From assembly GCF_035084215.1 (NCBI RefSeq), contig NC_090353.1, positions 32,984,001-33,048,000 of the forward strand: 64,000 nucleotides of DNA, in the 5' to 3' direction. Shown here piece by piece: positions 8,796 to 52,502 of the stretch; positions within the stretch are counted from its first letter, which is position 1; every line of letters starts with the position of its first letter. This stretch comes from Heptranchias perlo. Its lineage: Eukaryota. Position numbers and translations under genes: made by a program. The notes beneath the pieces are model-generated. The model was not told the origin of the DNA and did no database searches. It saw only the letters and a list, made by a program, of their open reading frames with translations.

Positions 8796-9036
8796 TCAGT
8801 AAGGCTGAGCCTCCGACGAAAGGTTTGCCAGCTGGATCAGTGCCAGCGCCCCGTACCACCGCTCCTTCTGTTCCTGCAGGTGCCTCCGGGAGCAGCGTTG
8901 TTCCCCCCCCTCCTCCTCCTCCTCCTCCTCCTGGCGATGGAGGCGGCCCATCGGGATCTTCTGCTCCTGGTCAGGTTTCTGGACGCACGTCTCTTCCTTG
9001 GCTGGGGTCGGCCGCTGTTCTCGGCTCTGCCAGTAC
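8796..9036 (-). CDS. ZNF367-like exon 5 (terminal)
   Basis: YWQSREQRPTP...QKPDQEQ...LQEQKERWYGALALIQLANL..* matches the ZNF367 C-terminal GALALIELAN motif; phases join to 900 nt. Confidence 0.93.
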
Positions 9037-9404
9037 CTGCGCGAGTTACACGGTCGAAAAGAAAAGAACTTCAGATGGGTAAACAAGCGCGAGCGGTCCA
9101 ATGTTTATTTGTATCCGGCTGTTTTAATATCCGCAACAACCCCACCCCCCTCTGGCTCCTAATGGTTCAGCCTGTAATTCTGTGGTCCTTCCCCCATCAG
9201 GCAGCTCAGTTGGTACTTTCCCTTCTCAGTCCGGTTCTGAGCTGCACTCCCACTAAAACTTGCATTTATAATTGCACCTTTAACGCAGAAAAAACATCAC
9301 GGGAGGCGTGAGGAGAAACAGATTCCGATCCAAGGGAGGAGCGATAGGATCGACAGCTCGGTCAAAGAGGTGGGTTCTTAGGCAGGTCTTTAAAAAGGAG
9401 GGGA

Positions 9405-9695
9405 AGTACTGGAGAGATCAATAAATCCAATCGGGAATCCAGGAGAAACTTCTTTACCCAGAGGGTGGTGAGAACGTGGAACTCGCTGCCACAGGGAGTA
9501 GTTGAGGTGAATGGCATAGATGCATTCAAGAGGAAGCTGGATAAACACATGAGGGAGAAAGGAATAGAAGGATATGGATGTAGGGTTAGATGAAGTAAGG
9601 TGAGAGGAGGCTCGTATGGAACGTAAACACCGGCATAAACCTGTCGGGCCGAATGGCCTGTTTCTGTGCTGTAAATTCTATCTAATTCTATGTAA
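9405..9695 (+). mobile_element. CR1 LINE 3' fragment
   Basis: RRNFFTQRVVRTWNSLP-type sequence; gggccgaatggcctgtttctgtgctgta tail. Confidence 0.85.
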
Positions 9696-10002
9696 TTTAG
9701 GGAGTGGATTCCAGCAAGTGGGGCCTGTACAGGTCAGGAATCGCCTGGGCTCAATCCCTTGTCTGGAAGGACTTTGCTGGTCTTGGCCATGGTGTAGGGA
9801 TGATTCCATTGGCCTCAACACCCAGTAGGACGGAGGGAGCTAAGAGTCCCAGGCCTGATCCCTATCCAGCGAGTCTGGCTGGAAAGAATAACAGCTCCGG
9901 CCACAAGGCCCGATTGCCATACCGCCAACCACCCACGGTTGAATATCCCGTCGCGACCTAGGCACACACATGAAAAAGTGGCCACTGGGTTCTGAGGTGA
10001 GG

Positions 10003-10042
10003 TGGGGGGGGGGGGGGGGGGGGTGGGGGGGGGGGGGGGGGG
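10003..10042. repeat. Poly-G run
   Basis: ~40 nt of G with one T interruption. Confidence 0.9.
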
Positions 10043-10160
10043 AGTGGGTGCTTCCCCCTTTGGAACTGTCGGGCAGCAGGAGTTGGTGCCGAGAGAGGAG
10101 AGGGGGAAAAAAAAATACACCGCGACAAATACGAGACGGCACAGGAGCTCAGTCGCTCAC

Positions 10161-10302
10161 CTCGCGAGCCACTCCGCCACCGCCTTGTCCTCTTCGGCCG
10201 TCGTGACCTTGTCCTGATTGGTCGCGCCCTCCTGCCGCCTCAGTCTGGCGTACGGGTGTCTCGAGCAGTGCCGATTGGCGTGGGTAAATTTGCTGGCACA
10301 AC
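10161..10302 (-). CDS. ZNF367-like exon 4
   Basis: GCASKFTHANRHCSRHPYARLRRQEGATNQDKVTTAEEDKAVAEWLA; ctccag| and |GTGAGC; 142 nt. Confidence 0.95.
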
Positions 10303-10569
10303 CTGGAGAGAATTTTTTTTTTTAAAAAACAAACATTTCCAGGTCACTTTGCTTAACAGAGATACTTTCGCAGTAATTAATCTCCACACAGATCAACACT
10401 CAACACTAAATCTCATAGGCCCAGCACGGGCTGCATTGTTTGTTCAAACTTTGCCTCACTGGAGTGAAAAGGCACAAAGTTTGACTAAAACTGGGAGCAT
10501 TTTGTCACCTCCTCCCACAGGGCAGGCAACAAGTCCAGTTACACTTCAACAGAGAACCTTACAGCAATG

Positions 10570-10910
10570 ACTTGCATTTATATAGCGCCTTTGACGTAGT
10601 AAAACTTCCCGAGGCGCTTCACAGGAGCGTTTGTCAAACAAAATTTGACACCGAGCCACACGAGGAGATATCAGGACAGGCGGCCAAAAGCTTGGTCAAA
10701 GAAGTGGGCATTAAAGAGAGTCTTAAAAAGTAGAGAGAGGCAGAGAGCCTCGGGAGGGAATTTCAGAGCTTAGGGTCTAGACGGCTGAATGCACGGCTGC
10801 CAACGGAAGTGGGGGATGGGCAAGAGGCTATAGTTGCAGAGATCTGAGGGTTGTAGGGTGGGAGGTTACAGAGAGAGGGAGGGAGGGGCGAGGCCATGGA
10901 ATGATTTGAA
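10570..10910 (-). mobile_element. L2-type LINE 3' fragment
   Basis: Reverse of the ..aaggcgctatataaatgcaagt tail and body shared with 22973-23560. Confidence 0.8.
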
Positions 10911-11215
10911 TGCAGTTGAACCCTGGGTTGAGTCAATGGGTTAGATGCTGAGTTTTGATGAAGACTGCCACTCAAAGTCAACTCTCAATCGCAGACTTGG
11001 TAATCGCATACCCAGGCCCAGGCCGGGCAGACCTGCAGTACTCCACTGATTGAGCAGCCACGATCACTAAGGGGACCTGGAGGGTAAACCTGTCACTGGG
11101 TCTAGGAATCTTCCCATTCAGGTTCAGATGACCTTGCAGGGCAAAACACTAACAGGCAGGATGGACCTTGCTGGACAAACACCAGGCAGGCTAACCGAGG
11201 CGTCAGCCGTAGCTC

Positions 11216-11826
11216 CGAGGGTCCCGAGCAGCTCCGTAACACACGACTCTGTGCTCTACGGGCTGTTCCCGGGGACGCACACCGAGACAGATATCAACTG
11301 CTGCTGGAAGACCGTCAACTCGGTGAAAGACGCCCTTTGGTCTGCCCGAAACCTGCTGGTCTTCCAGTGCACGGAGCTGTCCTCGACCGAGTGTTGCAGA
11401 CTGGCACATTTCAAGGTCCAGGACTACGTGCTCAGGGACACACCGATGCCGGGTGCGGCCGCCGCAAAGGCTCTGTGGGGAAAGGCAACCATTTGGAGCC
11501 TTCCCGCCATTGTATACCGAGGGGCTGCAATCAGGGAAAAACCCCCCCAGGCAAAATGTAAAATTCAAATTGATGTAATGTACCTGAAATGAATCTGTAA
11601 TGTACCTGAAATGAATCTGTAATCAGTAATCTGTATTGAGTATAATGCAATGAGACACCCCAGAGTGTCATGAACTGTAATTATGTACAATGTGTTCATT
11701 GAACTGTACTTGATGTAACCTGCAAATTGTATAATCTGTATTGTGTACATTTGGAATGTGGTATGATAACTGTATTGTATGTTTTGCTGCAAATTTTATG
11801 AATAAAGTATATTTTATGAAAAAAAA
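11216..11826 (+). mobile_element. Tx1-type (L1 group) LINE 3' fragment with poly(A) tail
   Basis: SVLYGLFPGTH..CCWKTVNSVKDALWSARNLLVFQ C-terminal ORF2 motif, TG-rich 3'UTR, AATAAA, A8 tail. Confidence 0.75.
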
Positions 11827-12477
11827 GGTAGCACTCTCGGAGTCAGAGGGTTATGGGTTCATGCCCCACTCCAGAGACTTAAACACATGATCCAGGCTGA
11901 CACTCCAGTGCAATACGGAGGGAGTGCTGCATTGTCAGAGGTGCCGTCTTTTGGATGAGACATTAAACCGAGGCCCGGTCTGCCCTCTCAGGTGGATGTA
12001 GAAGATTTTGTGGCACTTTTCTGAAGAGCAGGGAAGTTCTCCCTGGTGTCCTGGCCAATATCCTTCAATCAACATCAATGAAATATATTATCTGGTCATT
12101 ATCACATTGCTGTTTGTGGGTCCTTGCTACATGCAAATTGGCTGCTGCGTTTCCTACATCACAACACTGACTACACTTCAAAAATGCTCCATTGACTGTA
12201 AGGTGCTTTGGGATGTCTTGAGGTTGTGAAAAGTGTGATATAAAATGCAAGTCTTTCTTTGACCTGCTCTGGTAAGCAGTGAGGGTTTTACATGGTTAAA
12301 CTCCAGTAACATCCCGGCACGCAATTGGAGTTCCCCCAAGTCTTGGCTCTGCAAAACCCATCCTAAACTCTCTGGGTTTAGGGAAAAGTGACATGCCCTA
12401 TAGGGAGAGAGTGTTGCACTCCATACTGGGTAAGCAGAAACCTGACAGCTGGGTTCGGAATTGGGAGAAGATTGCAT

Positions 12478-12505
12478 TGGACACCTGGTGGCACTGTGCT
12501 GCAGC
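12478..12505 (-). promoter_or_regulatory. Candidate CTCF site (ZNF367-like intron 3)
   Basis: Minus strand GCTGCAGcacagtgCCACCAGGTGTCC: imperfect core plus upstream GCTGCAG. Confidence 0.35.
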
Positions 12506-13469
12506 CCTAACACTGCACCCCCCAAAACCAGCCCAGTGCTGTAGCTACAAGTCTGGGGAAAGTTTGTGCCTGTAATCCGTGCTTGGGGATTCGTGCTGCT
12601 GTCCACCTAGTGACTATACAAGTCCACACTCAGTCACTCCACAACCAAAGTGAAGAAGGTTCCTGCTTGTAGAATTTTTACAGCACAGAAGGAGGCCATT
12701 TGGCCCATCGTGCCTGTGCCCTCTCTCTAAAACAGCCATTCACTGAGTCCTATTCCTCTAACCTTTCCCCAACCCATTTAAAACTCTTCCCTTTTCAAAT
12801 ATTTATCTTCTTCCCTTTTAAAAGCGATTGTGGATTCTGCTTCCCCCACATTCCGTACCCCAACTTAAAAAAAAATTCTCGGAACGCCAGGCTGATTGAA
12901 AAAGAAAGTCACCGTGACTCTGATTTTACAAGTCCTGCAAGACTCTTCAAGGGAGGGTCTCCAGAGTCAAACAAGCAACATTAGGCGATGCGCTTCCAAA
13001 CAGAGGCAACATGTGCAGCACTTCCGAGGCCTTTTAAACGGGACCAAGATGCTTAGGGAGGACGAAGGCCGTTCAGCCCATTCTAAGTCATCCATTCAGA
13101 GAGATCGGAAAGTCCCCACATTGCTGCATCCAATTGTTTCTTAAATGATTCCACTGCTCCACCTGGAAATTTATTCCACGTTTTGAAGACTCTTTGTGCC
13201 AAGAAGACTTCCCTGATAGCAGTCCTAAAATGTCCGTTTATTAGTATGAATATATGTCCCATTTCCTAACTCAATTTAAAGTAATATTCCAGATTTGCAT
13301 TCTCCATTTCCTTAACTATCTCAAATGATCACCTCTCAGGCACTTCTTTTGGGTGTATTCCGTAAATAATCCGTAGTGGAATCTAGTTATTTATGAACGG
13401 GACGAAGTGGATTTAAAAATAAACTAAATCCCGTGCAGTCTCCCCTCACAGTGAAATCTAAATTTTAAA

Positions 13470-13800
13470 AAATTCATTCTTGGGACGTGGGCCTCACTAG
13501 CAAGGCCGGCATTTAGAATCCATAGACTCTCACAGCACAGAAGGAGGCCATTCGGCCCATCGTACCTGTGCCAGCTCTTTGAAAGAGCTGTCCAATTTAG
13601 TCCCACACACCAGCTTTTTCCCCTTAACCCTGCAAATTAGCCCTCTTCAAGAACATGTCCAATTGCCTTTTGAAAGTTCTTATGGAATCTGATTCCACCA
13701 CCCTTTCAGATAGTGCGTTCCAGATCTTAATTTATTGCCCATCCCTAGTTGCCCTTTGAGAAGGTGGAGGTGGGCCTTCTTCTTGAACCGCTGCAGTCCA
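13470..13800 (-). mobile_element. CR1 3' fragment (13516-13729) nested in a LINE/SINE tail
   Basis: Host tail ..gcaaggccggcATTTA [CR1] ATTTAttgcccatccc.. with a 5-nt duplication. Confidence 0.8.
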
Positions 13801-14279
13801 GGAGACTGTACAGGTTTGATCACAACAGGAGCTGGGTGACAAAGGCTCAGGAAGTGTACCAGTGCTGCACATGCTCAGCAAATGATGCCGAGACTGACTG
13901 ATTGTGTGCCAGGACTGTACAGGTGAAAAGAGGGTTTCCAGTTCAGGGACCCTTTTCCTGAACTGCAGCAGAGCTGGAACTCGCTGCATTCCTCTGCTTC
14001 TTCACACTGGGAGCCAGGCTGCTCTACTTTAACCCAGTACTTCGCAAAGGATCGCAAGCCTGAGGTGGCAAGACCCTCCGCTGCTGACCTCTGACCCACA
14101 ATTCTTACCGTTCCTTCCTTCACCTTCAGTCTACTCCAATTAACTTTGTGTGTGAACACAAGAGCTGGAGTCGAATCTGCAGTGAGCGCATCCATCTGAT
14201 GATATTATTGCTGTGTTTTTATGTGTCGTCAAGTACACGCATGGTCAAGATATTAATGCACACACGTGTATATACGTGC

Positions 14280-15150
14280 AACCTTTGAAATTGGATATAT
14301 ACTTGAAAAGGAAAATTTTGAAGGGCTTTGGGGAAAGAGCAGGAGAGTGGGGCTAACGGGATAGAATTATACTGGGGCTTAGAGGGTTAAATTATGAGGA
14401 CAGGTAGCATAAATTTGGCTTGTATTCCCTTGAGTATAGAAGATCGAGGGGTGATCTGATCGAGGTGTTTAAAATGTTAAAAAGATTCGGTAGGGTATAT
14501 ATGGAGAAACTATTTCCTCTGGTGGGGGAATCAAGAACGAGGGGGCATAATCTTAAAATTAGAGCTGGGAGGGAGGGAAATCAGGAAACTTTTTCCATAC
14601 AAAGGATAGTAAAAATCCAGAATTCTCTCCCCCAAAAAGGCTGTGGATGCGGGGGACAATTGGAGCTTTCAAGCCTTTTGGGGGAAGAGATCGATAGATT
14701 TTTGTTAGGTAAAGGAATCAAGGAATATGGAGCAAAAGCTGGTAAGTGGAATTGAGATACAGATCAGCCGCGATCTCACTGAATGGCAGAGCAGGCTCGA
14801 GGGGCTGAATGGCCTACTCCTGTTATTATGTTAGCTCTTTCAAAAGCCGGGACAGGCACAATGGGCCGAATGGCTGTACATAAACTGTGTCAGCTGTGGC
14901 TCAGTTGGTAGCACCCTTGTCACTCAGTCACGAAGGTTGTGGGTTCAAGTCCCACTCCAGAGTCTTCACCTCATAAGCTAGGCTGTCACTACTGTGCAGT
15001 ACTGAGGGAGTGCTGCATTGCCTTTTTGGACTCTAAGGGATATGGGGATCAGGCGGAAAAGAGTCGAGGTCGAAGATCAGCTATGATCTTATTGAATGGC
15101 GGAGCAGGCTCGAGGGGCCCTATGGCCTACTCCTGCTCCGATTTCTTATG
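14280..15150 (+). mobile_element. Nested CR1 fragments plus partial tRNA-SINE head (~14889-15020)
   Basis: YSLEYRRSRGDLIEVFKMLK..RTRGHNLKI; CR1 tails; gtggctcagttggtagc..gggttcaagtcccactccag. Confidence 0.8.
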
Positions 15151-15187
15151 TATCTTCTGAATCGGTCAGCTGCGGACCCCCACGTTA

Positions 15188-15364
<177 letters not shown>

Positions 15365-16254
15365 TCAAAGAGAGAGAGGAGGGGGAGGAGGAAGAAGAAG
15401 GAAAGAAAATAAAATACTTTTTTCCCCCCCATTAACTTAAAAACCACCAATCTCTTCAGCTTATAGAGATAAGGTCACACACGTCCGTGGAATTTAAAAC
15501 ACACCACAGTATTCCCAGTAGGTTATTCTTTCAGGGAGATCCCAAGACTCGGTTTTCAGAGAATGCAGACAACCGATCGAAATCGGCAAAAAAGCGAAGA
15601 CATTTTTTTAAACCGCATCTTAAAGAGCCAATAATTTGCTCTTTGGCGGCTTCTTCAGTTCCATCGCCCGTGGAACCAGTAGGACTATGCAGACTGACCA
15701 GTTGCCCCCACAAAAATGGCAATCGGGTTCTTATTTACGTCACAGGATCCCAATTTCCATATTAAAAGGGCCCCCCCCTCCCCCCGCAATCGTCTGAAAC
15801 AGCCGGTCGCTTTGGATACCCGGCGGCAGGCCCCTTTCAAAATGGAGCCGCCCACATCGCTGTCGTTAACGGGACAGTGAGGCGACCGAACCCCGAATTA
15901 CGAGGCCGTTGCTGCCCCGTCAACGCCAGGCGAAGGCAGCAAAAATCATCCCCCCCCCCGCCCCCCCACAATGCTTCATTATTGAAAAACCCGGGTGAAG
16001 TTGATGGATTCGGACACCAAAGTTGAAAAGAGTAGGAGCGACGGCCACATCACAGACTTTCCAGAAGAGTCACCGGACAGCAGTCAGGAGCAGAGGTCAC
16101 TAAGGCCTAATTGGAGATCCCCAATTAAGATCAGTTAGCTCAGCACAGACCAGGAACTAAACCTGCAACCTCCTGGGTGCGTATGACACAGCCACATGCT
16201 GCATTTATCAACTGATCCACGGGGAGAAATTCCCAACACCATTTTTATTTTAAA

Positions 16255-16500
16255 CAAAAGCAAAGTACTGCCGATGCTGGAAATCTGAAACAAAAAACAG
16301 AAAATGTTGGTAAACACTGGTCAGGCAGCACCTGCGGAGAGAGAAACAGAGTTAATGTTTCAGGGTGACCATCCATCAGGACACATCGTCAGCAGTTCTG
16401 GTGAGAGGTCATCGACCTGAAACGTAAACTCCGTTTATATCTCTCCACGGATGCTGCCTGACCTGCGGAGTGTTTTTCAGCATTTTCTGTTTTTATTTCA
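16255..16500. mobile_element. Palindromic Penelope-type element with degenerate hammerhead cores
   Basis: Arms ~16286-16380 and ~16395-16500 are imperfect inverted repeats; CTGGTGA GAGGTC ATC GACCT GAAA CGTA at 16398-16426. Confidence 0.7.
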
Positions 16501-16951
16501 TTCTTTTGTAAATTGAAAGATCAAGGTCCAAAAGTGCAGATACCACCAAGGTGACGATTGCAAGGGGAGAAGCAGTGTCGAGTAACACCAAACTTGCCCC
16601 TAGATTCACCCACATAACAAACACAAACCTCCAAAAAGTAATTCACGTGAAGCACTTGGATACATTTTCAGCTACAGGATGAGGCGCTACGTAAACGAAA
16701 GTATTTTTAGATTGCAGAAGGAAGGCAAGACTGAAGGTGTTAGGGGGGTTCCACGATGGGGACCCTGGGAAAGAACGAGTCGGAGATAACGTGAGGAGTC
16801 TTGAGCTCGATGGGTGGGTGAGAAGATGGAGCAAGAGCGGTGAAGGTAACGATGGTGAATATTTTTTAAACGGAGTGGCCTCCTTCTGTGCTGTACGATT
16901 CTATATGGGCAGGAGCGACGAGCTGCCTGTGCTGTCCCCTCTTCCACTTAC

Positions 16952-17102
16952 CAGTGTGCGTCCTTCTGTGAGCTTGTAGTGATTTTTCCCGCGGGAATAC
17001 TCGATTGCAGATGTGACAGCGGATCCGGCTGGTGGACACAGTGCCCTCAGTGATCAAATCTCGGACTATTTCTGCTCTTGGGCGGCCACGTCGAATCCCA
17101 TC
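16952..17102 (-). CDS. ZNF367-like exon 2 (first C2H2 finger)
   Basis: DGIRRGRPRAEIVRDLITEGTVSTSRIRCHICNRVFPREKSLQAHRRTHT; cag| and |GTAAGT; 151 nt. Confidence 0.96.
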
Positions 17103-17702
17103 CTGCAACACAGAACCCGAGGATGTCATTTGTGAACACCCACATTCCCGAGTTAGACCCCTGGCCTGCGCCGAGTTAGCCGATCTCTCAATCTAATCGG
17201 GGGTCGGGGGGTGTGGAAACAGTTGGGATGCTGCAGTTGGCATCAGCGCTATTGAACGAAGCAAAAATAGTATAATAATAAAAAAAAAATCGGCCAGGGT
17301 CCCTGCTCCTGCTCACTGTTCAACGACCTCTGCCAGGGATGGACGTCAGGTCAGGACCAGATCAGGCTTAGCTCTGAAACTCTTCAGAGCACAGAAGCCT
17401 CCCAGTCTTCAGTATTTAGGCCTAGAAAGAACGGCCACTTGCGCGAGGTACTGGGAGGGCTGTTTCCACCATACAGCAGCATGGGCAGTCCATGTGATAT
17501 TCTTTCTGGCAGCTTGGCTCAGTGGAGGCACTCTCACACGAGCTAGAAGGTTCTTGTTTCAAGTTCAATCAAGGCTGACATTTCAGTGCAGTTTGAGGGA
17601 GTGCTGCCTTGTCAGAGGTGCTGAGATGTTAAGCAGAGCCTATTCAGGTGAATTTAAAAGATGGCACTTTTGTGAAGGGCAGGGAAGTCATCCCAGTGTC
17701 CT

Positions 17703-17865
17703 GGCCAGGGGCAGACTGGCCAAATGGGAAATCAGGAGATTTCCCCAAGTGCCCCCCATGAACGTTTCCATAGCGCTGTATTATTAGCACCCCCACCCCC
17801 CCCCCCCCGCCATTTTCCATGAGAATCTCACACTCTCTTGGGGGAGCCAGTCTGCCCCCCTGGCC
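17703..17865. mobile_element. Small MITE inserted in a SINE
   Basis: GGCCAGGGGCAGACTGGC ... GCCAGTCTGCCCCCCTGGCC inverted termini; SINE sequence resumes on both sides. Confidence 0.6.
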
Positions 17866-17962
17866 TGACCAACATTCACCCCCCCAACCAAGTCAAAACT
17901 GGTCATTCATTTTATTTTTTGTTTACGAGATTTTGCTGTGCACAAATTGTCTACCACATGGA

Positions 17963-18335
17963 CGGGTACAGTAGTGCAGTGGTTGTGTTACTGGACTAGT
18001 AATCCAGAGCACGTTAGTTCAAATCCCACTATTGCAATTTAAAAAATCTGGAAATCCGGTATCAGTAAAAGTGACCATGAAGCTGTCGTATTGTCATTAA
18101 AAACCCAACTGGTTTACTAATGCCCTCTAGGGAAGGAAACCTGCCGTCCTTACCCGGTCTGGCCTCTATGTGACTATTAACTGCCCTCTGAAGTAGCCTA
18201 GCAAGCAACAGAGTTGTATCAAACCATTCAGCGGTTCAAGAAGAAAGCCCACCACCACCTTCTCAAGGTCAACTGGAGACGGGCAATAAATGCCAGCCTT
18301 GCCAGCGATGCCCACATCCCAAGAATGATTTTTTT
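17963..18335 (+). mobile_element. tRNA-derived SINE sharing its 3' tail with the LINE at 48960-51708
   Basis: TAGTGCAGTGG A box, GTTCAAATCC B box; tail gcggttcaagaag..ccaccaccttctcaagg..gggcaataaatgc..gatgcccacatccca. Confidence 0.85.
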
Positions 18336-18689
18336 TAAATTGCCTACACTGCACTTCAAAAGGACTTCACTGGCTGCGAAGCTTGAGAATGCAAGTTTTT
18401 TTTAAAAAACCCTTTGACTGCAGTGGAGGCAAATAATGCGGGGGAAATTTAAGGGAGATTTGGGAAGTTAGTTCAGGTAACGGGGGTGATTGAGAGGAAT
18501 TAGTTTTTTTTTGGGCGACTGCAGAGCCTGTACTTTCCTAGGTTCCCAATCAATAAAGATGCGGCTATCACGGTGACGGTCACCTTGGAGCAAATTTAAA
18601 TAACGACGAGGAAATAAAACACAAAAAGGATGAGGATTTTTTTTTTGTGCAGAAAAGCCCCGGGATTTCCTCCTGTTTGACAGTCGGGA

Positions 18690-18820
18690 TGAATGGGCGC
18701 GCCCCGGCAGTAAGCCAATCACACGGCACGTGGGGAGGGTGGGCGGGGCCGCCCGGTGTCCCGTCGCCATGGCGATAGAACGTTGGCGCCTGCAACATTT
18801 TGGCGGGTTCCGCGCGGACT
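18690..18820. promoter_or_regulatory. Intronic CpG island with promoter-type motifs
   Basis: CCAAT 18715, CACGTG 18727, GC box 18741, RFX X-box-like GTCGCCATGGCGAT 18763-18776, E2F-like TTGGCGCC 18783 and TTTTGGCGGG 18798. Confidence 0.6.
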
Positions 18821-19410
18821 GTGGCAATTTCAGGTCATTCAAGGAGGGAAGAATCTCAACCATTCATTAAAAACCCCTTGCATTTCTAACAACATAATAA
18901 TCAAGGCCACGATCGTTTTTTTAAAAAAAAGAAAGAAAGTGAGGGAAACTTTGCAAGTGAACAATTCGCAAATTGAATTGAAAAATGCGTTTCATTTAAA
19001 ACGAAAAAGGGACTTTGATACATCTGGAAATTGACCTGTTCGGTTGAGAGAGCTCAATTACATCTGTTAAGTTATTTTTAACAACTGAAAATCACGCTGC
19101 CCTTGGAGAGAGGGGGGGGGGATGAACAGCAAGGGATTTCCAGCAAAACTTGCTGGCCCCAAACCAAATATAGATCTGCAATTAGAAGTTCGAAAAACAC
19201 TGCACCTTTTGACTGACTTACATGTTACAATTATAAATTATATTTAAGTACAGTTGCAGTAGTGACAAACCAAGTGCAATGGGTTTTATTGCCATTATTA
19301 TTCCCTGCATTAGGTATTAAAATCCCATTTGACAACCTGTGCACCGCATCTCCTTCTAAAGTCGCTGGGTCCGCTACAGGGACACCAACAAAGAACGCCG
19401 CCTCCTTTAC

Positions 19411-19656
19411 CTTATACGCGGGGATGTCAGGACTTTGCCCGGGTGAAGTTGACCCTGTTGATCCGGCGCTGGGAGTCGGGCTCAGGCTCATATTGTTGGA
19501 GTTTTCCGCCCATTTGTAGGGAAAAACCACTGAAAAATCCCCCAAACTTAACTCCTCGGCCCCGCGCTTGGATTTGAACGGCGTGGATTTAATCACAGAG
19601 ACGATCATCCGCTTGGGCGAATCGCAACCCGCGCTCCCGGGCATAATAATATACAT
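19411..19656 (-). CDS. ZNF367-like zinc finger protein, coding exon 1 of 5
   Basis: MYIIMPG..CDSPKRMIVSVIKSTP..FPYKWAENSNNMSLSP..SPDIPAYK resembles ZNF367 DSPKRVLVSVIRTTP/YPWRWGENAHNVTLSP; donor AAG|GTAAAG phase 0; alternative ATG at 19644. Confidence 0.85.
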
Positions 19657-19659
19657 TGA

Positions 19660-19870
19660 TTTTTCTTTTAAATAAAAAGAGATGGAAAGTCCGGTTCTTG
19701 TATGTTTCTTGTCCTCTGGCGCCTTTCCCGCGTATTTTGCCTGCTGGGAATTCTCGTTAACCAATCAGTCCAGAGATACGGGGGCATCCCCGCGCTTTCC
19801 GTCCAATCGGTTGGTGAGCTGTCGTGTGTCAAAACAGGCATTTAAACTGAGTTTAAAGCTGGGTCCGTTT
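19660..19870 (-). promoter_or_regulatory. Cell-cycle-type promoter of the ZNF367-like gene
   Basis: E2F site TTTCCCGCG 19724-19732, CCAAT boxes at 19761 and 19803, TTTAAA (CHR-like) at 19667, 19841 and 19852; CpG-rich. Confidence 0.7.
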
Positions 19871-24631: not shown

Positions 24632-26690
24632 ACATAAGAACATAAGAAATAGGAGCAGGAGTAGCCCCTCGAGCCTGCTCTGCCATTCAACAAGATCATG
24701 GCTGATCTTCTACCTCAACGCCATTTTCCAGCACAATCCCCATAATCGCTTGATGCCTTTAATATCTAGAAATCTATCGATCTCTGTTTTAAATATACTC
24801 AATGAGCAGCCACAGCCCTCTGGGGTAGAGAATTCCAAAGATTCACCACCCTCTGAGTGAAGGAATTTCTCCTCATCTCAGTCCTAAATGGCCTACCCCT
24901 TATTCTGAGACTGTGACCCCTGGTTCTAGATTCCCCAGCCAGGGGAAACATCCTCCCTGCATCTACCCTGTCGAGCCCTGTAAGAATTTTGTATGTTTCA
25001 ATGACATCACCTCTCATTCTTCCAGAGAATACAGGCCTAGTCTACTCAATCTCTTCCCATACGACAATCCCACCATCCCAGGAATCAGTCTGGTGAACCT
25101 TCGTTGCACTCCCTCTATGGCAAGTATATCTTTTCTTAGGTAAGGAGACCAAAATTGTATGGAATACTCCAGGTGCAGTCTCACCAAAGCCCTATATAAT
25201 TGCAGTAAGACATCTTTACTCCTGTACTCAAATCCTCTTGAAATAAAGACCAACATACCATTTGCCTTCCTAATTGCTTGCTGCACCTGCATGTTAGCTT
25301 TCAGTGACTCATGTACAAGGATACCCAGGTCCCTTTGAACATCAACATTTCCCAATCTCTCACCATTTAAGAAATACTCTGCATTTCTGTTTTTCCTACC
25401 AAAGTGGATAACTTCACATTTTTCCACATTATATTCCATCTGCCATATTCTTGCCCACTCACTTAGCCTATCTATATCGCCTTGCATCCTCCTCACAACT
25501 CACATTCTCACCTAGTTTTGTGCCATCAGCAAACTTGGAAATATTACATTTGGTCCCCTCATCCAAATTATTGATATAGATTGTGAATAGACTGGGGCCC
25601 AAGCACCGATCCCTGCGGTACCCCACTAGTCACAGTCTGCCAACCTGAAAAAGACCCGTTTATTCCTACTCTGTTGTTTTCTGTCTGTTAACCAATTCTC
25701 AATCCATGCCAGTATATTACCCCCAATTCCATGTGCTCTAACTTTGTTCACCAACCTCCTGTGTGGGACCTTATCGAAAGCCTTCTGAAAATCCAAATAC
25801 ACCACATCCACTGGTTCCCCCTTATCTATTCTACTAGTTACATCCTCAAAGAACTCCAATAGGTTTGTCAAACATGATTTCCCTTTCATAAATCCATGTT
25901 GATTCTGCCAAATCCTATTTTTATTTTCTAAGTCATTGTTATCACATCCTTTATAATAGATTCTAGCATTTTCCCTCCTTCTGATGTAAGGCTAACAGGT
26001 CTGTAGTTCCCTGTTTTCTCTCTTCCTCCTTTCTTAAATAATGGGATTACATTTGCTACCCTCCAATCTGCAGGAACCATTCCAGAATCTATAGAATTTT
26101 GGAAGATGACAACCAATGCATCCACTATCTCTATAGCCACCTCTTTCATAGCCCTGGGATGTAGATCATCAGGTCCTTGGGATTTATCGACTTTTAGTCC
26201 CATTAATTTCTCTAGTAATATTTTTTTTTACTAATACTAATTTCTTTCAGTTCCTCATTCTCACCAGACCCTTGTTTCTCTAGTATTTCTGAGAGGTTTT
26301 TTATGCCTTCTTCCGTGAAGACAGACACAAAGCATTTGTTTAATTTCTCTGCCATTTCCTTATTCCCCATTATAAATTCTCCTGTCTCTGTCTGTAAAGG
26401 ACCCACATTTGCCTTCGCCAGTCTTTTCCTTTTTACATACCTATAGAGGCTTTTACAGTCCATTTTTATGTTTCTCACTAGTTTACTCTCATATTCTATT
26501 TTCCCTTTCTTTATCAATTTCTTGGTCCTCCTTTGCTGAATTCTAAAATACTCCAATCCTCAGACTTATTGCTTTTTCTGGCAACTTATATGCCTCTTTT
26601 TTTGATTTAATACTATCTTTAATTTCTCTTGTTAGCCACGGTCAGACCACTTTTCCTGTTGGGTTTTTGTGCCTTAAAGGGATATATATT
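24632..26690 (-). mobile_element. CR1 LINE, ~2 kb 5'-truncated copy with frameshifted RT ORF2
   Basis: ORF pieces GNYRPVSLTS, KSCLTNLLEFFEDVT..VDVVYLDFQKAFDKVPH, WQMEYNVEKCEVIHFG; (ttcttatg)n tail. Confidence 0.95.
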
Positions 26691-48399: not shown

Positions 48400-51300
48400 T
48401 GATAACTGTGGTCCAGCCAGCCCAACATCGGTGGTGGGGAAACTTCTAGAGATCCATAATCTAGGAAAAATTTAATTGTCACTTGGGAGAACATGGGTTA
48501 GTTCATAAATGACAGCCAATACAGATTTGTTAAAGACAAATCGTGTCTGACCAACTTGATTGTGTTCTTTGATGAAATAATGGAGACGGTTGATGAAGGT
48601 AGTGCAGTTGATGTGTGTATGGACTTACAAAAGACGTCGATAAAGTGCCACAAAACAGACTTGTTAGCAAAATCTAATCCCACAGGCTTCAAGGGGCAGT
48701 GGTAGCGTGGATATGAAATTGGCTAAGAGACAGAAAGCAGAGACTAGTGGTGAATGGTTGTTCATCAGACTGGAGGGAAATATACAGTGGTGTCCCCCAG
48801 GGGTCGGTATTAGGGCAACAGTTCCTTTTGATATATACTAATGACCTGGACTTGGGCACAGGAGCCATAAATTCAAACTATGCAGATGACACAAAATTTG
48901 GAAATGCAATAAACCATCAGGATAGCAGCAGACTTCAGGAGGACAGACAGACTGATGAAAGTCAAGCAACAGCCTGACATAGCCATACTCACAGAATCAT
49001 ACCTTTCAGCCAACGTCCCAGACTCCTCCATCACCATCCCTGGGTGTGTCCTGTCCTAGCAGCAGGACACACCCACCAGAGGTGGCGGTACAGTGGTATA
49101 CAGTAAGGAGGGAGTGGCCCTGGGAGTCCTCAACATTGACTCCGGACCCCATGAAATCTCAGGGCATCAGGTCAAACATGGGCAAGGAAACCTCATGCTG
49201 ATTACCACCTACCGCCCTCCCCAGCTGATGAATCAGTCCTCCTCCATTTTGAGCACCACTTGGAGGCAGCACTGAGAGTAGCAAGGGCACAAAATGTACT
49301 CTAGGTGGGGGATTTCAATCTCCATTACCAAGAGTGGCTCGGTAGCACCACTACTGACCGAGATGGCCAAGTCCTGAAGGACACAGTTGCCAGACTGGGC
49401 CTGCGGCAGATGGTGAGCGAACCAAGGGAAAAACCTACTTGACCTCGTCCTCACCAATCTACCTGTCGCAGATGCATCTGTCCATGACAGTATTGGTAGG
49501 AGTGACCACCGCACAGTTCTTGTGGAGATGAAGTCCTGTCTTCACAATGAGGAAACCATCCAACGTGTTGTGTGGCACTACCACCATGCTAAATGGGATA
49601 GATTCAGAACAGATCTAGCAGCTCAAAACTGGGTATCCATGAGGCACTGTGGGCCAGCAGCAGCAGCAGAATTGTATTCCACCACAATCTGTAACCTCAT
49701 GGCCTGGCATATTCCTCACTCTACCATTACTAACAAGCCAGGGGATCAACCCTGGTTCAATGAGGAGTGTAGAAGAGCATGCCAGGAGCAGCAGCAGGCA
49801 TACCTAAAAATGAGGTGCCAACCTGGTGAAGCTGCAACTCAGGACTACGTGCATGCTAAACAGCGGAAGCAACATGCTATAGACAGAGCTAAGCGATTCC
49901 ACAACCAACGGATCAGATCAAAGCTCTGTAGTCCTGCCACATCCAGTCGTGAATGATGGGGGACAATTAAACAACTAACGGGAGGAGGAGGCTCCGTGAA
50001 CATCCCCATCCTCAATGATGGCGGAGTCCAACACATGAGTGCAAAAGACAAGGCAGAAACATTTGCTACCATCTTCAGCCAGAAGTGTTGAGTGGATGAT
50101 CCATCTCGGCCTCCTCCTGATATCCCCACCATCATAGAAGCTGGTCTTCAGCCAATTCGATTCACTCCACGTGATATCAAGAAACGGCTGAGTGCACTGG
50201 ATATAGCAAAGGCTATCAGCCCTGTCAACATCCCGGCTGTAATGCTGAAGACTTGTGCTCCAGAACTAGCCACTCCCCTAGCCAAACTGTTCCAGTACAG
50301 CTACAACACTGGCATTTACCTGACAATGTGGAAAATTGCCCAGGTATGTCCTGTCCACAAAAAGGACAAATCCAATCCGGCCAATTACTGCCCCATCAGT
50401 CTACTCTCAATCATCAGCAAAGTGATGGAAGATTTCGTCGACAGTGCGATCAAGCGGCATTTACTCACCAATAACCTGCTCACTGATGCTTAGTTTGGGT
50501 TCCGCCAGGACCACTCGGCTCCAGACCTCATTACAGCCTTGGTCCAAACATGGACAAAAGAGCTGAATTCCAGAGGTGAGGCGAGAGTGACTGCCCTTGA
50601 CATCAAGGCAGCATTTAACAGAGTGTGGCATCAAGGAGCCTTAGTAAAATTGAAGTCAACCGGAATCAGGTGGAAAACTCTCCAGTGGCTGGAGTTATAC
50701 TTAGCACAAAGGAAGATGGTAGTGGTTGTTGGAGGCCAATCATCTCAGCCCCAGGACATTGCTGCAGGAGTTCCTCAGGGCAGTGTCCTAGGCCCAACCA
50801 TCTTCAGCTGCTTCATCAATGACCTTCCCTCCATCATAAGGTCAGAAATGAGGATGTTCCCTGATGATTGCACAGTGTTCAGTTCCATTCGCAACCCCTC
50901 AGATAATGAAGCAGTCCGTGCTCGCATGCAGCAAGACCTGGAAAACATCCAGGCTTGGGCTGATAACTGGCAAGTAACATTTGCGCCATCTCCAATAAGA
51001 GAGAGTAACCACCACCCCATGACATTCAACGGCATTAACATCGCTGAATCCCCCACCATCAACGTCCTGGGGGTCACCATTGACCAGAAACTTAACTGGA
51101 CCAGCCATATAAATACGTGGCTACAAGAGCAGGTCAGAGGCTGGGTATTCTGTGGCGAGTGACTCACCTCCTGACTCCCCAAAGCCTTTCCACCATCTAC
51201 AAAGCACAAGTCAGGAGTGTGATGGAATATTCTCCACTTGCCTGGATGAGTGCAGCTCCAACAATAATCAAAAAGCTCGACACCATCCAGGACAAAGCAG

Positions 51301-52502
51301 CCGGCTTAATTGGCACCCCATCCACCACCTTAAACATTCACTGTCTACACCACTGGCGCACCGTTGCTGCAGTATGTACCATCCACAGGATACACTGCAG
51401 CTATTCGCCAAGGTTTCTTCAACAGCACCTCCCAAACCTGCAACCTCTACCACCTAGAAAGACAAGGGCAGCGGGCACATGCGAACAACACCACCTGCAT
51501 GTTCCCTTCCAAGTCACACGCCATCCGTCGTTCCTGGGTCAAAATCCTGGAACTCCCTACTTAACAGAACTGTGGGAGAACCTTCACCACATGGACTGCA
51601 GCGGTTCAAGAAGGCGGCTCACCACCATCTTCTCAAGGGCAATTTGTGATGGGCAATAAATGCTGGCCTTGCCAGTGATGCCCACGTCCCATGAACGAAT
51701 GAAAAAAGGCCTACACATGCAGATGAAATTTAATGCAGCGATGTGTGAAGTGATGCATTTTGGAAGGAAGAATGAAGAGAGGCAATAGAAACTAAATGGT
51801 ACAATTTATCCATTGAGAGATCTGGGGGTTCACATATACAAATCTTTGAAGGTGGCAAGGCAAGTGGATACGGCTGTTAAAAAAGCATACAGGATCCTGG
51901 GCTTTTTAAATAGAGACATAGAGTACAAAAGCAAGAAAGTTATGCTAAGCCTTTATAAATCACTAGTTAGGCCTCTGCTGGAGTATTGTATCCAATTCTA
52001 TGCGCCACACTTTCAGAAGGATGTGAAGGCCTTGGAGAAGGTGCAGAAGAGTTGACCTAGAACGGTACCAGGGGTGAGGGACTTAAGTTATGTGGAGAGG
52101 CAAGAGAAGCTGGGGTTGTTCTCCTTCGTGCAGAGAAGATTATGGGAAGATTTAATAGAGGTGTTCAAAATTATTAAGGATTTTGATAGAGTAGATAGGG
52201 AGAAACTGTTTCCACTGGCAGGAAGGTCAGTAACCAGAGGCAAAATACCCAGGGGGGGGGGGGGGAGATAAGGAGATTTTTTTTACACAGCAAGTTGTTA
52301 TGATCTGGAATGCTTGAAAGTGTGGTGGAAGCAGATTCAATAGTAACTTTCAAAAGGGAATTGGATAAATACTTGACAAAGAAAAAATTTCAGGGCTTTG
52401 GGGAAAGAGCAGGGGATTGAGACTAATTAGATAGTTCTTTCAAAGAGTTGGCATAGGCACAATGGGCAGAATGGCCTCCTTCTGTGCTGTGTGATTCTAT
52501 GA
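48400..52502 (+). mobile_element. CR1 LINE (outer) split by a second LINE
   Basis: KSCLTNL..GVPQGSVLG..YADDTK to 48960; resumes at ~51709 with QMKFNA..CEVMHFG..LYKSLVRPLLEYC and CR1 tail. Confidence 0.9.
48960..51708 (+). mobile_element. ~2.7 kb CR1/Jockey-group LINE (endonuclease + RT remnants)
   Basis: GDFN..SDH endonuclease motifs, NPANYCPISLLS, ALDIKAAFNRVWH, GVPQGSVLGP, FPDD; several stops; tail gggcaataaatgctggcc..gaatgaaaaaa. Confidence 0.92.

Follow-up and report, generated by a model that had tools for sequence, protein, structure and literature searches.

The 64,000-nucleotide (nt) stretch analysed here, referred to as the window, comes from the shark Heptranchias perlo (RefSeq assembly GCF_035084215.1, contig NC_090353.1, here C32, positions 32,984,001 to 33,048,000), and contains an intact gene of the ZNF367 zinc finger family, ZNF367-like, next to the peptidase gene THOP1. 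The gene lies on the minus strand and has five coding exons, each with an AG acceptor and a GT donor where applicable:

19656-19411, minus strand: coding exon 1 (246 nt; ATG at 19656; 82 amino acids, aa), with an SPKR motif and an eroded YPWxW-type motif
17102-16952, minus strand: coding exon 2 (151 nt), with the basic motif RRGRPRA and C2H2 finger 1; 82% identity to exon 2 of a second gene, on contig C4
15354-15235, minus strand: coding exon 3 (120 nt), with C2H2 finger 2 and the beginning of finger 3
10302-10161, minus strand: coding exon 4 (142 nt), which completes the shortened third finger (FTHANRH-x3-H) and contains the AEWL helix
9036-8796, minus strand: coding exon 5 (241 nt), with an acidic stretch, the C-terminal W-x-GALALIQLAN motif and a TGA stop

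The spliced exons give 900 nt coding for 299 aa and a stop, with no internal stops, and the product matches letter for letter RefSeq XP_067824831.1, annotated as 'zinc finger protein 367-like' in H. perlo. A preliminary description of this DNA had proposed five exons with canonical splice sites and an open frame of ~299 aa, fingers of the ZNF367 type and a C-terminal GALALIxLAN motif, and all of this is borne out: Pfam recognizes two zf-C2H2 stretches, the shortened third finger is seen in the sequence after them, the recognition helices match, and the protein contains GALALIQLAN as well as the two N-terminal motifs named there, VFPYKWAENSNN and KSTPFK. A 329-aa form using an in-frame acceptor at 17192 (17103-17192, minus strand; 30 aa added to exon 2) is less likely, because the 151-nt exon 2 equals that of the C4 gene in length and acceptor; the extension is also unsupported by the homologues examined. 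Three RNA runs, dominated by repeats, gave no exon junction of this gene among the joints listed (with 785 further joints besides) and are uninformative either way. The gene is not a chance reading frame, as its exon sizes and phases mirror those of the second gene in the genome and it has orthologues in 22 other species.

This second gene is the only other locus of its type recovered from the genome. A search with exon 2 gives two loci, the window and C4 at 79.11 Mb (140 candidates scored), exon 4 gives the same two at E values up to 1 (3 candidates), and with the whole protein these two rank first, followed by generic finger arrays, among the best 150 of 358 matches. An N-terminal sequence search returned 8 proteins from 27 candidates and missed known members, so its sensitivity does not suffice to establish absence. 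The five exons of the C4 gene measure 270, 151, 120, 139 and 235 nt and form an open frame of 304 aa; the intron phases (0, 1, 1, 2) are common to both genes, and exons 2 and 3 are identical in length. The two proteins share 180 of 290 aligned residues (62%), and the nonsynonymous divergence (dN) is 0.063 in the finger region, against saturated synonymous sites (pS 0.997). An HABP4-family gene lies at a distance of 60 kb from the C4 gene and a CDC14 gene at 140 kb, the neighbourhood also of human ZNF367; a search for the TPT family placed no SLC35D gene near either locus. The proposal of a second family member had been made dependent on the presence of another ZNF367 in this genome, and there is one: the C4 gene is the canonical ZNF367 of the shark, grouping with the bony vertebrate ZNF367 proteins and lying beside HABP4 and CDC14B relatives, neither of which holds for the window gene, a separate paralogue. 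Human ZNF367 is on chromosome 9q (PMC6081467).

The protein motifs were compared in three sets: 23 ZNF367-like proteins (one per species; six partial or isoform entries dropped), 79 bony vertebrate ZNF367 proteins (76 of 109 non-chondrichthyan hits, 33 under 300 aa being dropped, and 3 cluster members) and 119 invertebrate proteins of at least 379 aa (of 120 listed, one a primate, from 142 hits in all). The recognition helix of finger 2 is identical in 23/23 ZNF367-like and 77/79 bony proteins, that of finger 1 is the same in 21/23 and 76/79, and HANR in finger 3 is kept in the listed ZNF367-like variants. The C-terminal A-L-A-L-I-[EQ]-L helix is present in all 23 ZNF367-like and all 79 bony proteins and in 95 of the 119 from invertebrates. 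The window protein thus has the two C2H2 fingers with matching helices, the shortened F-x-HANRH-x3-H finger and the C-terminal helix of the family, and lacks its N-terminal [YF]xWxW, which occurs in 0/23 ZNF367-like, 75/79 bony and 71/119 invertebrate proteins. The motifs TSPGxSD (0/23 vs 71/79 bony) and TPxK (2/23 vs 71/79) are similarly depleted, and SPKR is kept in 21/23. The residue three positions before the C-terminal ALAL is a tryptophan in all 23 ZNF367-like proteins and in 67/119 invertebrate ones, and a leucine or methionine in the C4 gene and all 79 bony proteins, which suggests that the tryptophan is ancestral, and that it was probably lost in ZNF367 and kept in the ZNF367-like copy. 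We also note that at least eight ZNF367-like proteins, among them ray and skate orthologues, have FAHANRH in finger 3 instead of FTHANRH, and that rays shorten the region after SVIK. A 2004 title by Asano reportedly speaks of a 'unique Cys2His2 motif', and a possible link to the shortened third finger rests on that title.

ZNF367-like is found in 23 chondrichthyan species: 13 sharks, 9 rays and skates, and the chimaera Callorhinchus. Each of the other 22 proteins has a better score with the window protein than with the one from C4, and all 109 non-chondrichthyan hits listed, among the best 120 of 475, are nearer the C4 protein. Gar, bichir, sturgeon, coelacanth and lungfish do not occur among the named entries of these 120, so that loss in bony vertebrates is unproven. 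The proposal of a second ZNF367-family gene retained in cartilaginous fishes therefore stands as regards the 23 species and an origin by genome doubling (below), and is unproven as regards restriction to them, although we think it rather likely that only chondrichthyans retained it. A sequence-cluster search at 50% gave two ZNF367-type entries among 150 listed, a list dominated by long multi-finger proteins, an Atlas search returned ZNF367 clusters only, and no solved ZNF367 structure is among the 28 matches listed.

Three trees were built from sequences hand-selected among the hits. The ZNF367-like group is supported at 98/99 with 45 sequences, 98/96 with 23 and, under a simpler model, 99/99 with 18; for the grouping of the C4 gene with bony ZNF367 the values are 89/88, 95/90 and 81/90, respectively. 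The window protein lies outside the ZNF367 orthologue clade in all three, and not inside it as a simple translocation would have it. Of 20 alignment columns fixed differently in the ZNF367-like and bony groups, the C4 gene agrees with the bony proteins in 18 and with the ZNF367-like ones in none. The trees favour a split that predates the divergence of chondrichthyans and osteichthyans without proving it, and a chondrichthyan-specific duplication is not rejected by the tree alone; it is the synteny that carries the case.

The neighbouring genes on C32 begin with the upstream neighbour:

29355-53850 (approximate coding-exon extent), minus strand: THOP1

The peptidase is THOP1 rather than NLN (191.8 vs 178.7 bits), and an SGTA-family exon lies 1.5 kb past the end of the window; the earlier placement of the gene next to THOP1 is thereby borne out. 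The order on C32 is a sphingosine 1-phosphate receptor gene (S1PR; 32.96 Mb, ~30 kb downstream of ZNF367-like), ZNF367-like, THOP1, SGTA (33.05 Mb), a ZIP transporter (33.09 Mb; SLC39A3 by position and by the skate table below) and DIRAS1 (33.12 Mb). Contig C4 carries ZNF367 (79.11 Mb), the HABP4-family gene (79.17 Mb), CDC14 (79.25 Mb), S1PR3 (80.29 Mb), a DIRAS gene (81.68 Mb) and NLN (24.69 Mb), so that members of the THOP1/NLN, DIRAS and S1PR pairs are split between C32 and C4. Third copies of DIRAS, HABP4-family, S1PR and CDC14 genes lie on contig C9, which has no ZNF367 hits. The same arrangement is seen in the skate, for which bait tables of HiChIP data list Slc39a3, Sgta, Thop1-2 and Znf367-1 in this order on LER29 at 8.27-8.35 Mb, and Habp4 with Znf367-2 on LER3 at 71.55-71.58 Mb; the accompanying linkage table assigns LER3 (chicken Z) to 2alpha and LER29 (gar 19, chicken 28) to 2beta of one unit (PMC10115646). 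By their shared neighbours C4 would correspond to LER3 and C32 to LER29. Because the two skate loci sit on published 2alpha and 2beta chromosomes with paralogous neighbours, we infer that ZNF367 and ZNF367-like arose in the second round of genome doubling (2R), and the synteny comparison that had been called for, in shark and skate alike, supports a 2R ohnologue.

The region upstream of the ATG contains candidate regulatory sites:

19724-19731, minus strand: putative E2F-type site GCGGGAAA, 75 nt before the ATG; the C4 gene has this 8-mer too, 122 nt ahead of its own ATG
19807-19803 and 19765-19761, minus strand: two inverted CCAAT boxes, farther from the ATG than the E2F-type site; a pair is likewise present in the C4 promoter

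Both promoters thus have GCGGGAAA within 125 nt of the ATG together with two CCAAT boxes. Of 2000 local shuffles for each promoter, 122 and 243 contain such a site, and CCAAT is common in the window (0.8 per 300 nt) and weak on its own. Predicted 5' extensions of the catshark and skate models translate to residues that match the stretch upstream of the window gene, in which there is an in-frame stop, and this suggests that the matching stretch is probably conserved promoter DNA. In the skate fin RNA table both loci appear at a similar level and with the same direction of change between anterior and posterior fin (Znf367-1, baseMean 48 and log2 fold change -2.2; Znf367-2, 38 and -2.4; PMC10115646). 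A table of RB-E2F targets includes human ZNF367 (PMC9090780), and ZNF367 has been described as a hub among the cell-cycle genes of neural stem-cell niches (PMC4326923). Knockdown of znf367 in Xenopus raises fancd2 and ska3, while an activating function has been described for one human isoform (PMC6081467).

From these features ZNF367-like would be an E2F-driven nuclear transcription factor of dividing cells that binds ZNF367 sites; nuclear, sequence-specific DNA binding is predicted from the identity of the helices, and control by the cell cycle would act through the E2F-type site of the promoter. The effector motifs of the ancestor may have been split between the pair, with the ZNF367-like copy losing YPWxW, TSPG and TPxK, the latter two probable kinase sites, and keeping the C-terminal tryptophan. 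The proline-directed TSPG and TPxK sites resemble those of cyclin-dependent kinases. The C-terminal helix presumably resembles Sin3-interaction helices and by this analogy may recruit a corepressor; the PAH1 domain of Sin3 is split over exons in this genome, and the literature on ZNF367 with SIN3 repression yielded passing mentions only. The paralogue would then share dosage with ZNF367 but be controlled differently, both post-translationally and through cofactors, and given the 2R origin we favour such dosage sharing with a split of effector motifs. The fuller history, in which the 2R beta copy persists only in chondrichthyans, ZNF367 kept the N-terminal YPWxW and the cluster of kinase sites, and the ancestral C-terminal tryptophan survived in the shark copy, is put forward tentatively.

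That the window gene is an intact five-exon ZNF367 paralogue and the 2R beta ohnologue kept in chondrichthyans is in our view very probable, and it has to be set beside several observations that weigh against it. The approximately unbiased (AU) tests leave a clade of the ZNF367-like group with the shark C4 gene unrejected (p of 0.078 with 23 sequences and 0.236 with 18), although the test has low power here, because a control grouping of the ZNF367-like group with teleosts is likewise unrejected (p of 0.214). At most of the 18 shared columns the derived state is that of the ZNF367-like group, and these columns do not root the tree; the outgroups are long-branched invertebrates, with no lamprey, hagfish or amphioxus sequence among them. 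On C4 NLN is 54 Mb from ZNF367, making collinearity partial, and the sole SGTB-like hit is weak (E of 0.04) and lies on C1 (73,241,689-73,241,775) and not on C4; we take NLN and SGTB to be neighbours in human. A duplication in the chondrichthyan stem that placed the copy by THOP1 and was followed by fast divergence would fit the AU results, the lack of a bony vertebrate ZNF367-like member among the hits listed, and the longer stem of the ZNF367-like group in two of the three trees (0.50 vs 0.15 and 0.35 vs 0.15). However, it needs an intron-preserving jump onto precisely the 2R partner chromosome, into a group of genes paralogous to those around the donor, the older split is preferred in each of the three best trees, and the C-terminal tryptophan is common to the ZNF367-like and invertebrate proteins and not to the C4 gene or bony ZNF367; we consider it improbable. 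An event other than 2R could instead have produced the pair, either the first (pan-vertebrate) doubling or a segmental duplication of greater age, given the saturated synonymous sites and trees that lack cyclostomes, but the published assignment of the two skate chromosomes is 2alpha and 2beta within a single unit, the C32 DIRAS is slightly nearer to the C4 copy than to the one on C9 (81% vs 78% identity), and a hagfish gene table lists one ZNF367, so that we give little credence to this origin either. The idea that the window gene is ZNF367 itself in a new position, or a dead copy, finds an echo in one UniRef entry, where the chimaera protein is called simply 'Zinc finger protein 367', yet it has next to no likelihood: the gene is not a moved orthologue, because the canonical ZNF367 is intact on C4 beside HABP4- and CDC14-family genes, and the open frame and conservation across 23 species rule out a pseudogene.

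For the role of the gene, as distinct from its origin, the opposing evidence is of other kinds. In finger 3 the ZNF367-like proteins have a fixed R-to-K change directly before the helix, and at least 8/23 have a T-to-A change; the E2F-type 8-mer occurs four times in the window, where 3.5 are expected; the two promoters align no better than chance (64 of 300 shuffles are as good); and the literature on ZNF367 is mixed as to activator or repressor (PMC6081467). The same 2R origin is compatible with a new role, in which the protein occupies ZNF367 sites as a competitor or a tissue-specific factor and has no part in the cell-cycle role, and to which the fixed losses of YPWxW and TSPGxSD and the near loss of TPxK would point. 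Against this, both skate loci shift in the same direction in fin RNA, both promoters have the E2F-type site, and SPKR is largely kept; we see a new role as unlikely, though the foremost alternative, and prefer the sharing of dosage.

In comparison with vertebrate ZNF367 (ZFF29, Zfp367), the shark gene agrees in its five coding exons, whose phases are those of ZNF367 in the same shark, in the RRGRPRA motif, in its two C2H2 fingers and shortened third one, with the same recognition helices, and in SPKR, the C-terminal ALALI[EQ]LAN helix and an E2F-type promoter site. It differs in its chromosome (the THOP1-SGTA-SLC39A3-DIRAS1 block), in having 62% identity to the shark ZNF367, in being without YPWxW, TSPGxSD and mostly TPxK, in keeping the C-terminal W, and in having Q for E in the terminal helix. 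With ZNF367-type proteins of Ciona, molluscs, a nemertean, a priapulid and arthropods it shares the finger array and the W before A-x-A-L (67/119), whereas the N-terminal [YF]xWxW of many of these retrieved sequences (71/119, at least 379 aa long) is absent. To our knowledge ZNF367 is single-copy in mammals.

Like the ohnologues retained in chondrichthyans that Marletaz et al. 2023 (PMC10115646) report, ZNF367-like is a beta-segment copy of a 2R pair in a slowly evolving gene set. That study counts 68 cases of differential ohnologues, of which 19 were lost in bony fishes, with wnt6b and cspg5 among those named; unlike these, ZNF367 appears, in the parts of the source covered, only as Znf367-1 and Znf367-2 in data tables (PMC10115646). 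Among the papers listed, literature searches found none describing a ZNF367-like paralogue, although the list of 68 and the remaining supplements may include it, and znf367 was not found in the searched supplements of PMC7269912, PMC10927551 and PMC8455134 (half of the files of the last). The RefSeq 'ZNF367-like' models XP_067824831.1, XP_055514501.1 and XP_007896947.2 are this gene and its orthologues under automatic labels, without origin or function. The gene thus already carries machine labels, 'ZNF367-like' in RefSeq and Znf367-1 in the skate tables, and since chondrichthyan retention of 2R copies is an established pattern, the surprise is moderate. The gene is one more example of a 2R beta copy that chondrichthyans retained, and a 'ZNF367' label in shark expression data may stand for either of the two genes. 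ZNF367 itself, a hub of cell-cycle networks in neural stem cells, is also a subject of research on ageing and cancer (PMC4326923, PMC6081467). Its effector regions are poorly mapped, and the reciprocal motif changes in the paralogue single out two short motifs of the human protein as targets for mutation; if the proposal is true, the same fingers with different tails are a natural domain-swap experiment on activation and repression of cell-cycle genes by ZNF367.

The surroundings of these loci have several further features. The shark genome has six S1P-receptor genes, two of them on C32 (31,954,163-31,955,158 and 32,961,984-32,963,225); mammals have five. The copy at 31.95 Mb is nearest S1PR3 (468 bits vs 427 for S1PR1), pairs best by score with S1PR3 on C4 and may be a further retained copy. 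The divergent receptor at 32.96 Mb is probably S1PR4 by its motif, with no S1PR4 chain among the PDB matches; one literature search found nothing on this. Two exon-like frames downstream of the C32 S1PR gene (L021:3945-4310, plus strand; L025:5231-5605, minus strand) are without a Pfam match. Part of an N-terminal SGTA exon is duplicated 2.8 kb downstream, at C32:33,052,302-33,052,370 (87% identity over 23 aa), as a duplicated exon or a remnant. Broken reverse-transcriptase fragments of the long interspersed nuclear element (LINE) type, the family being assigned by eye, lie within THOP1 at ~49000-51500 (plus strand) and between ZNF367-like and THOP1 at ~25000-26600 (minus strand). Finally, the third DIRAS gene, at C9:48,176,380-48,176,871, is well conserved (78% to DIRAS1) and lies near an HABP4/SERBP1-family gene, in what we take to be the position of the much more diverged mammalian DIRAS3.

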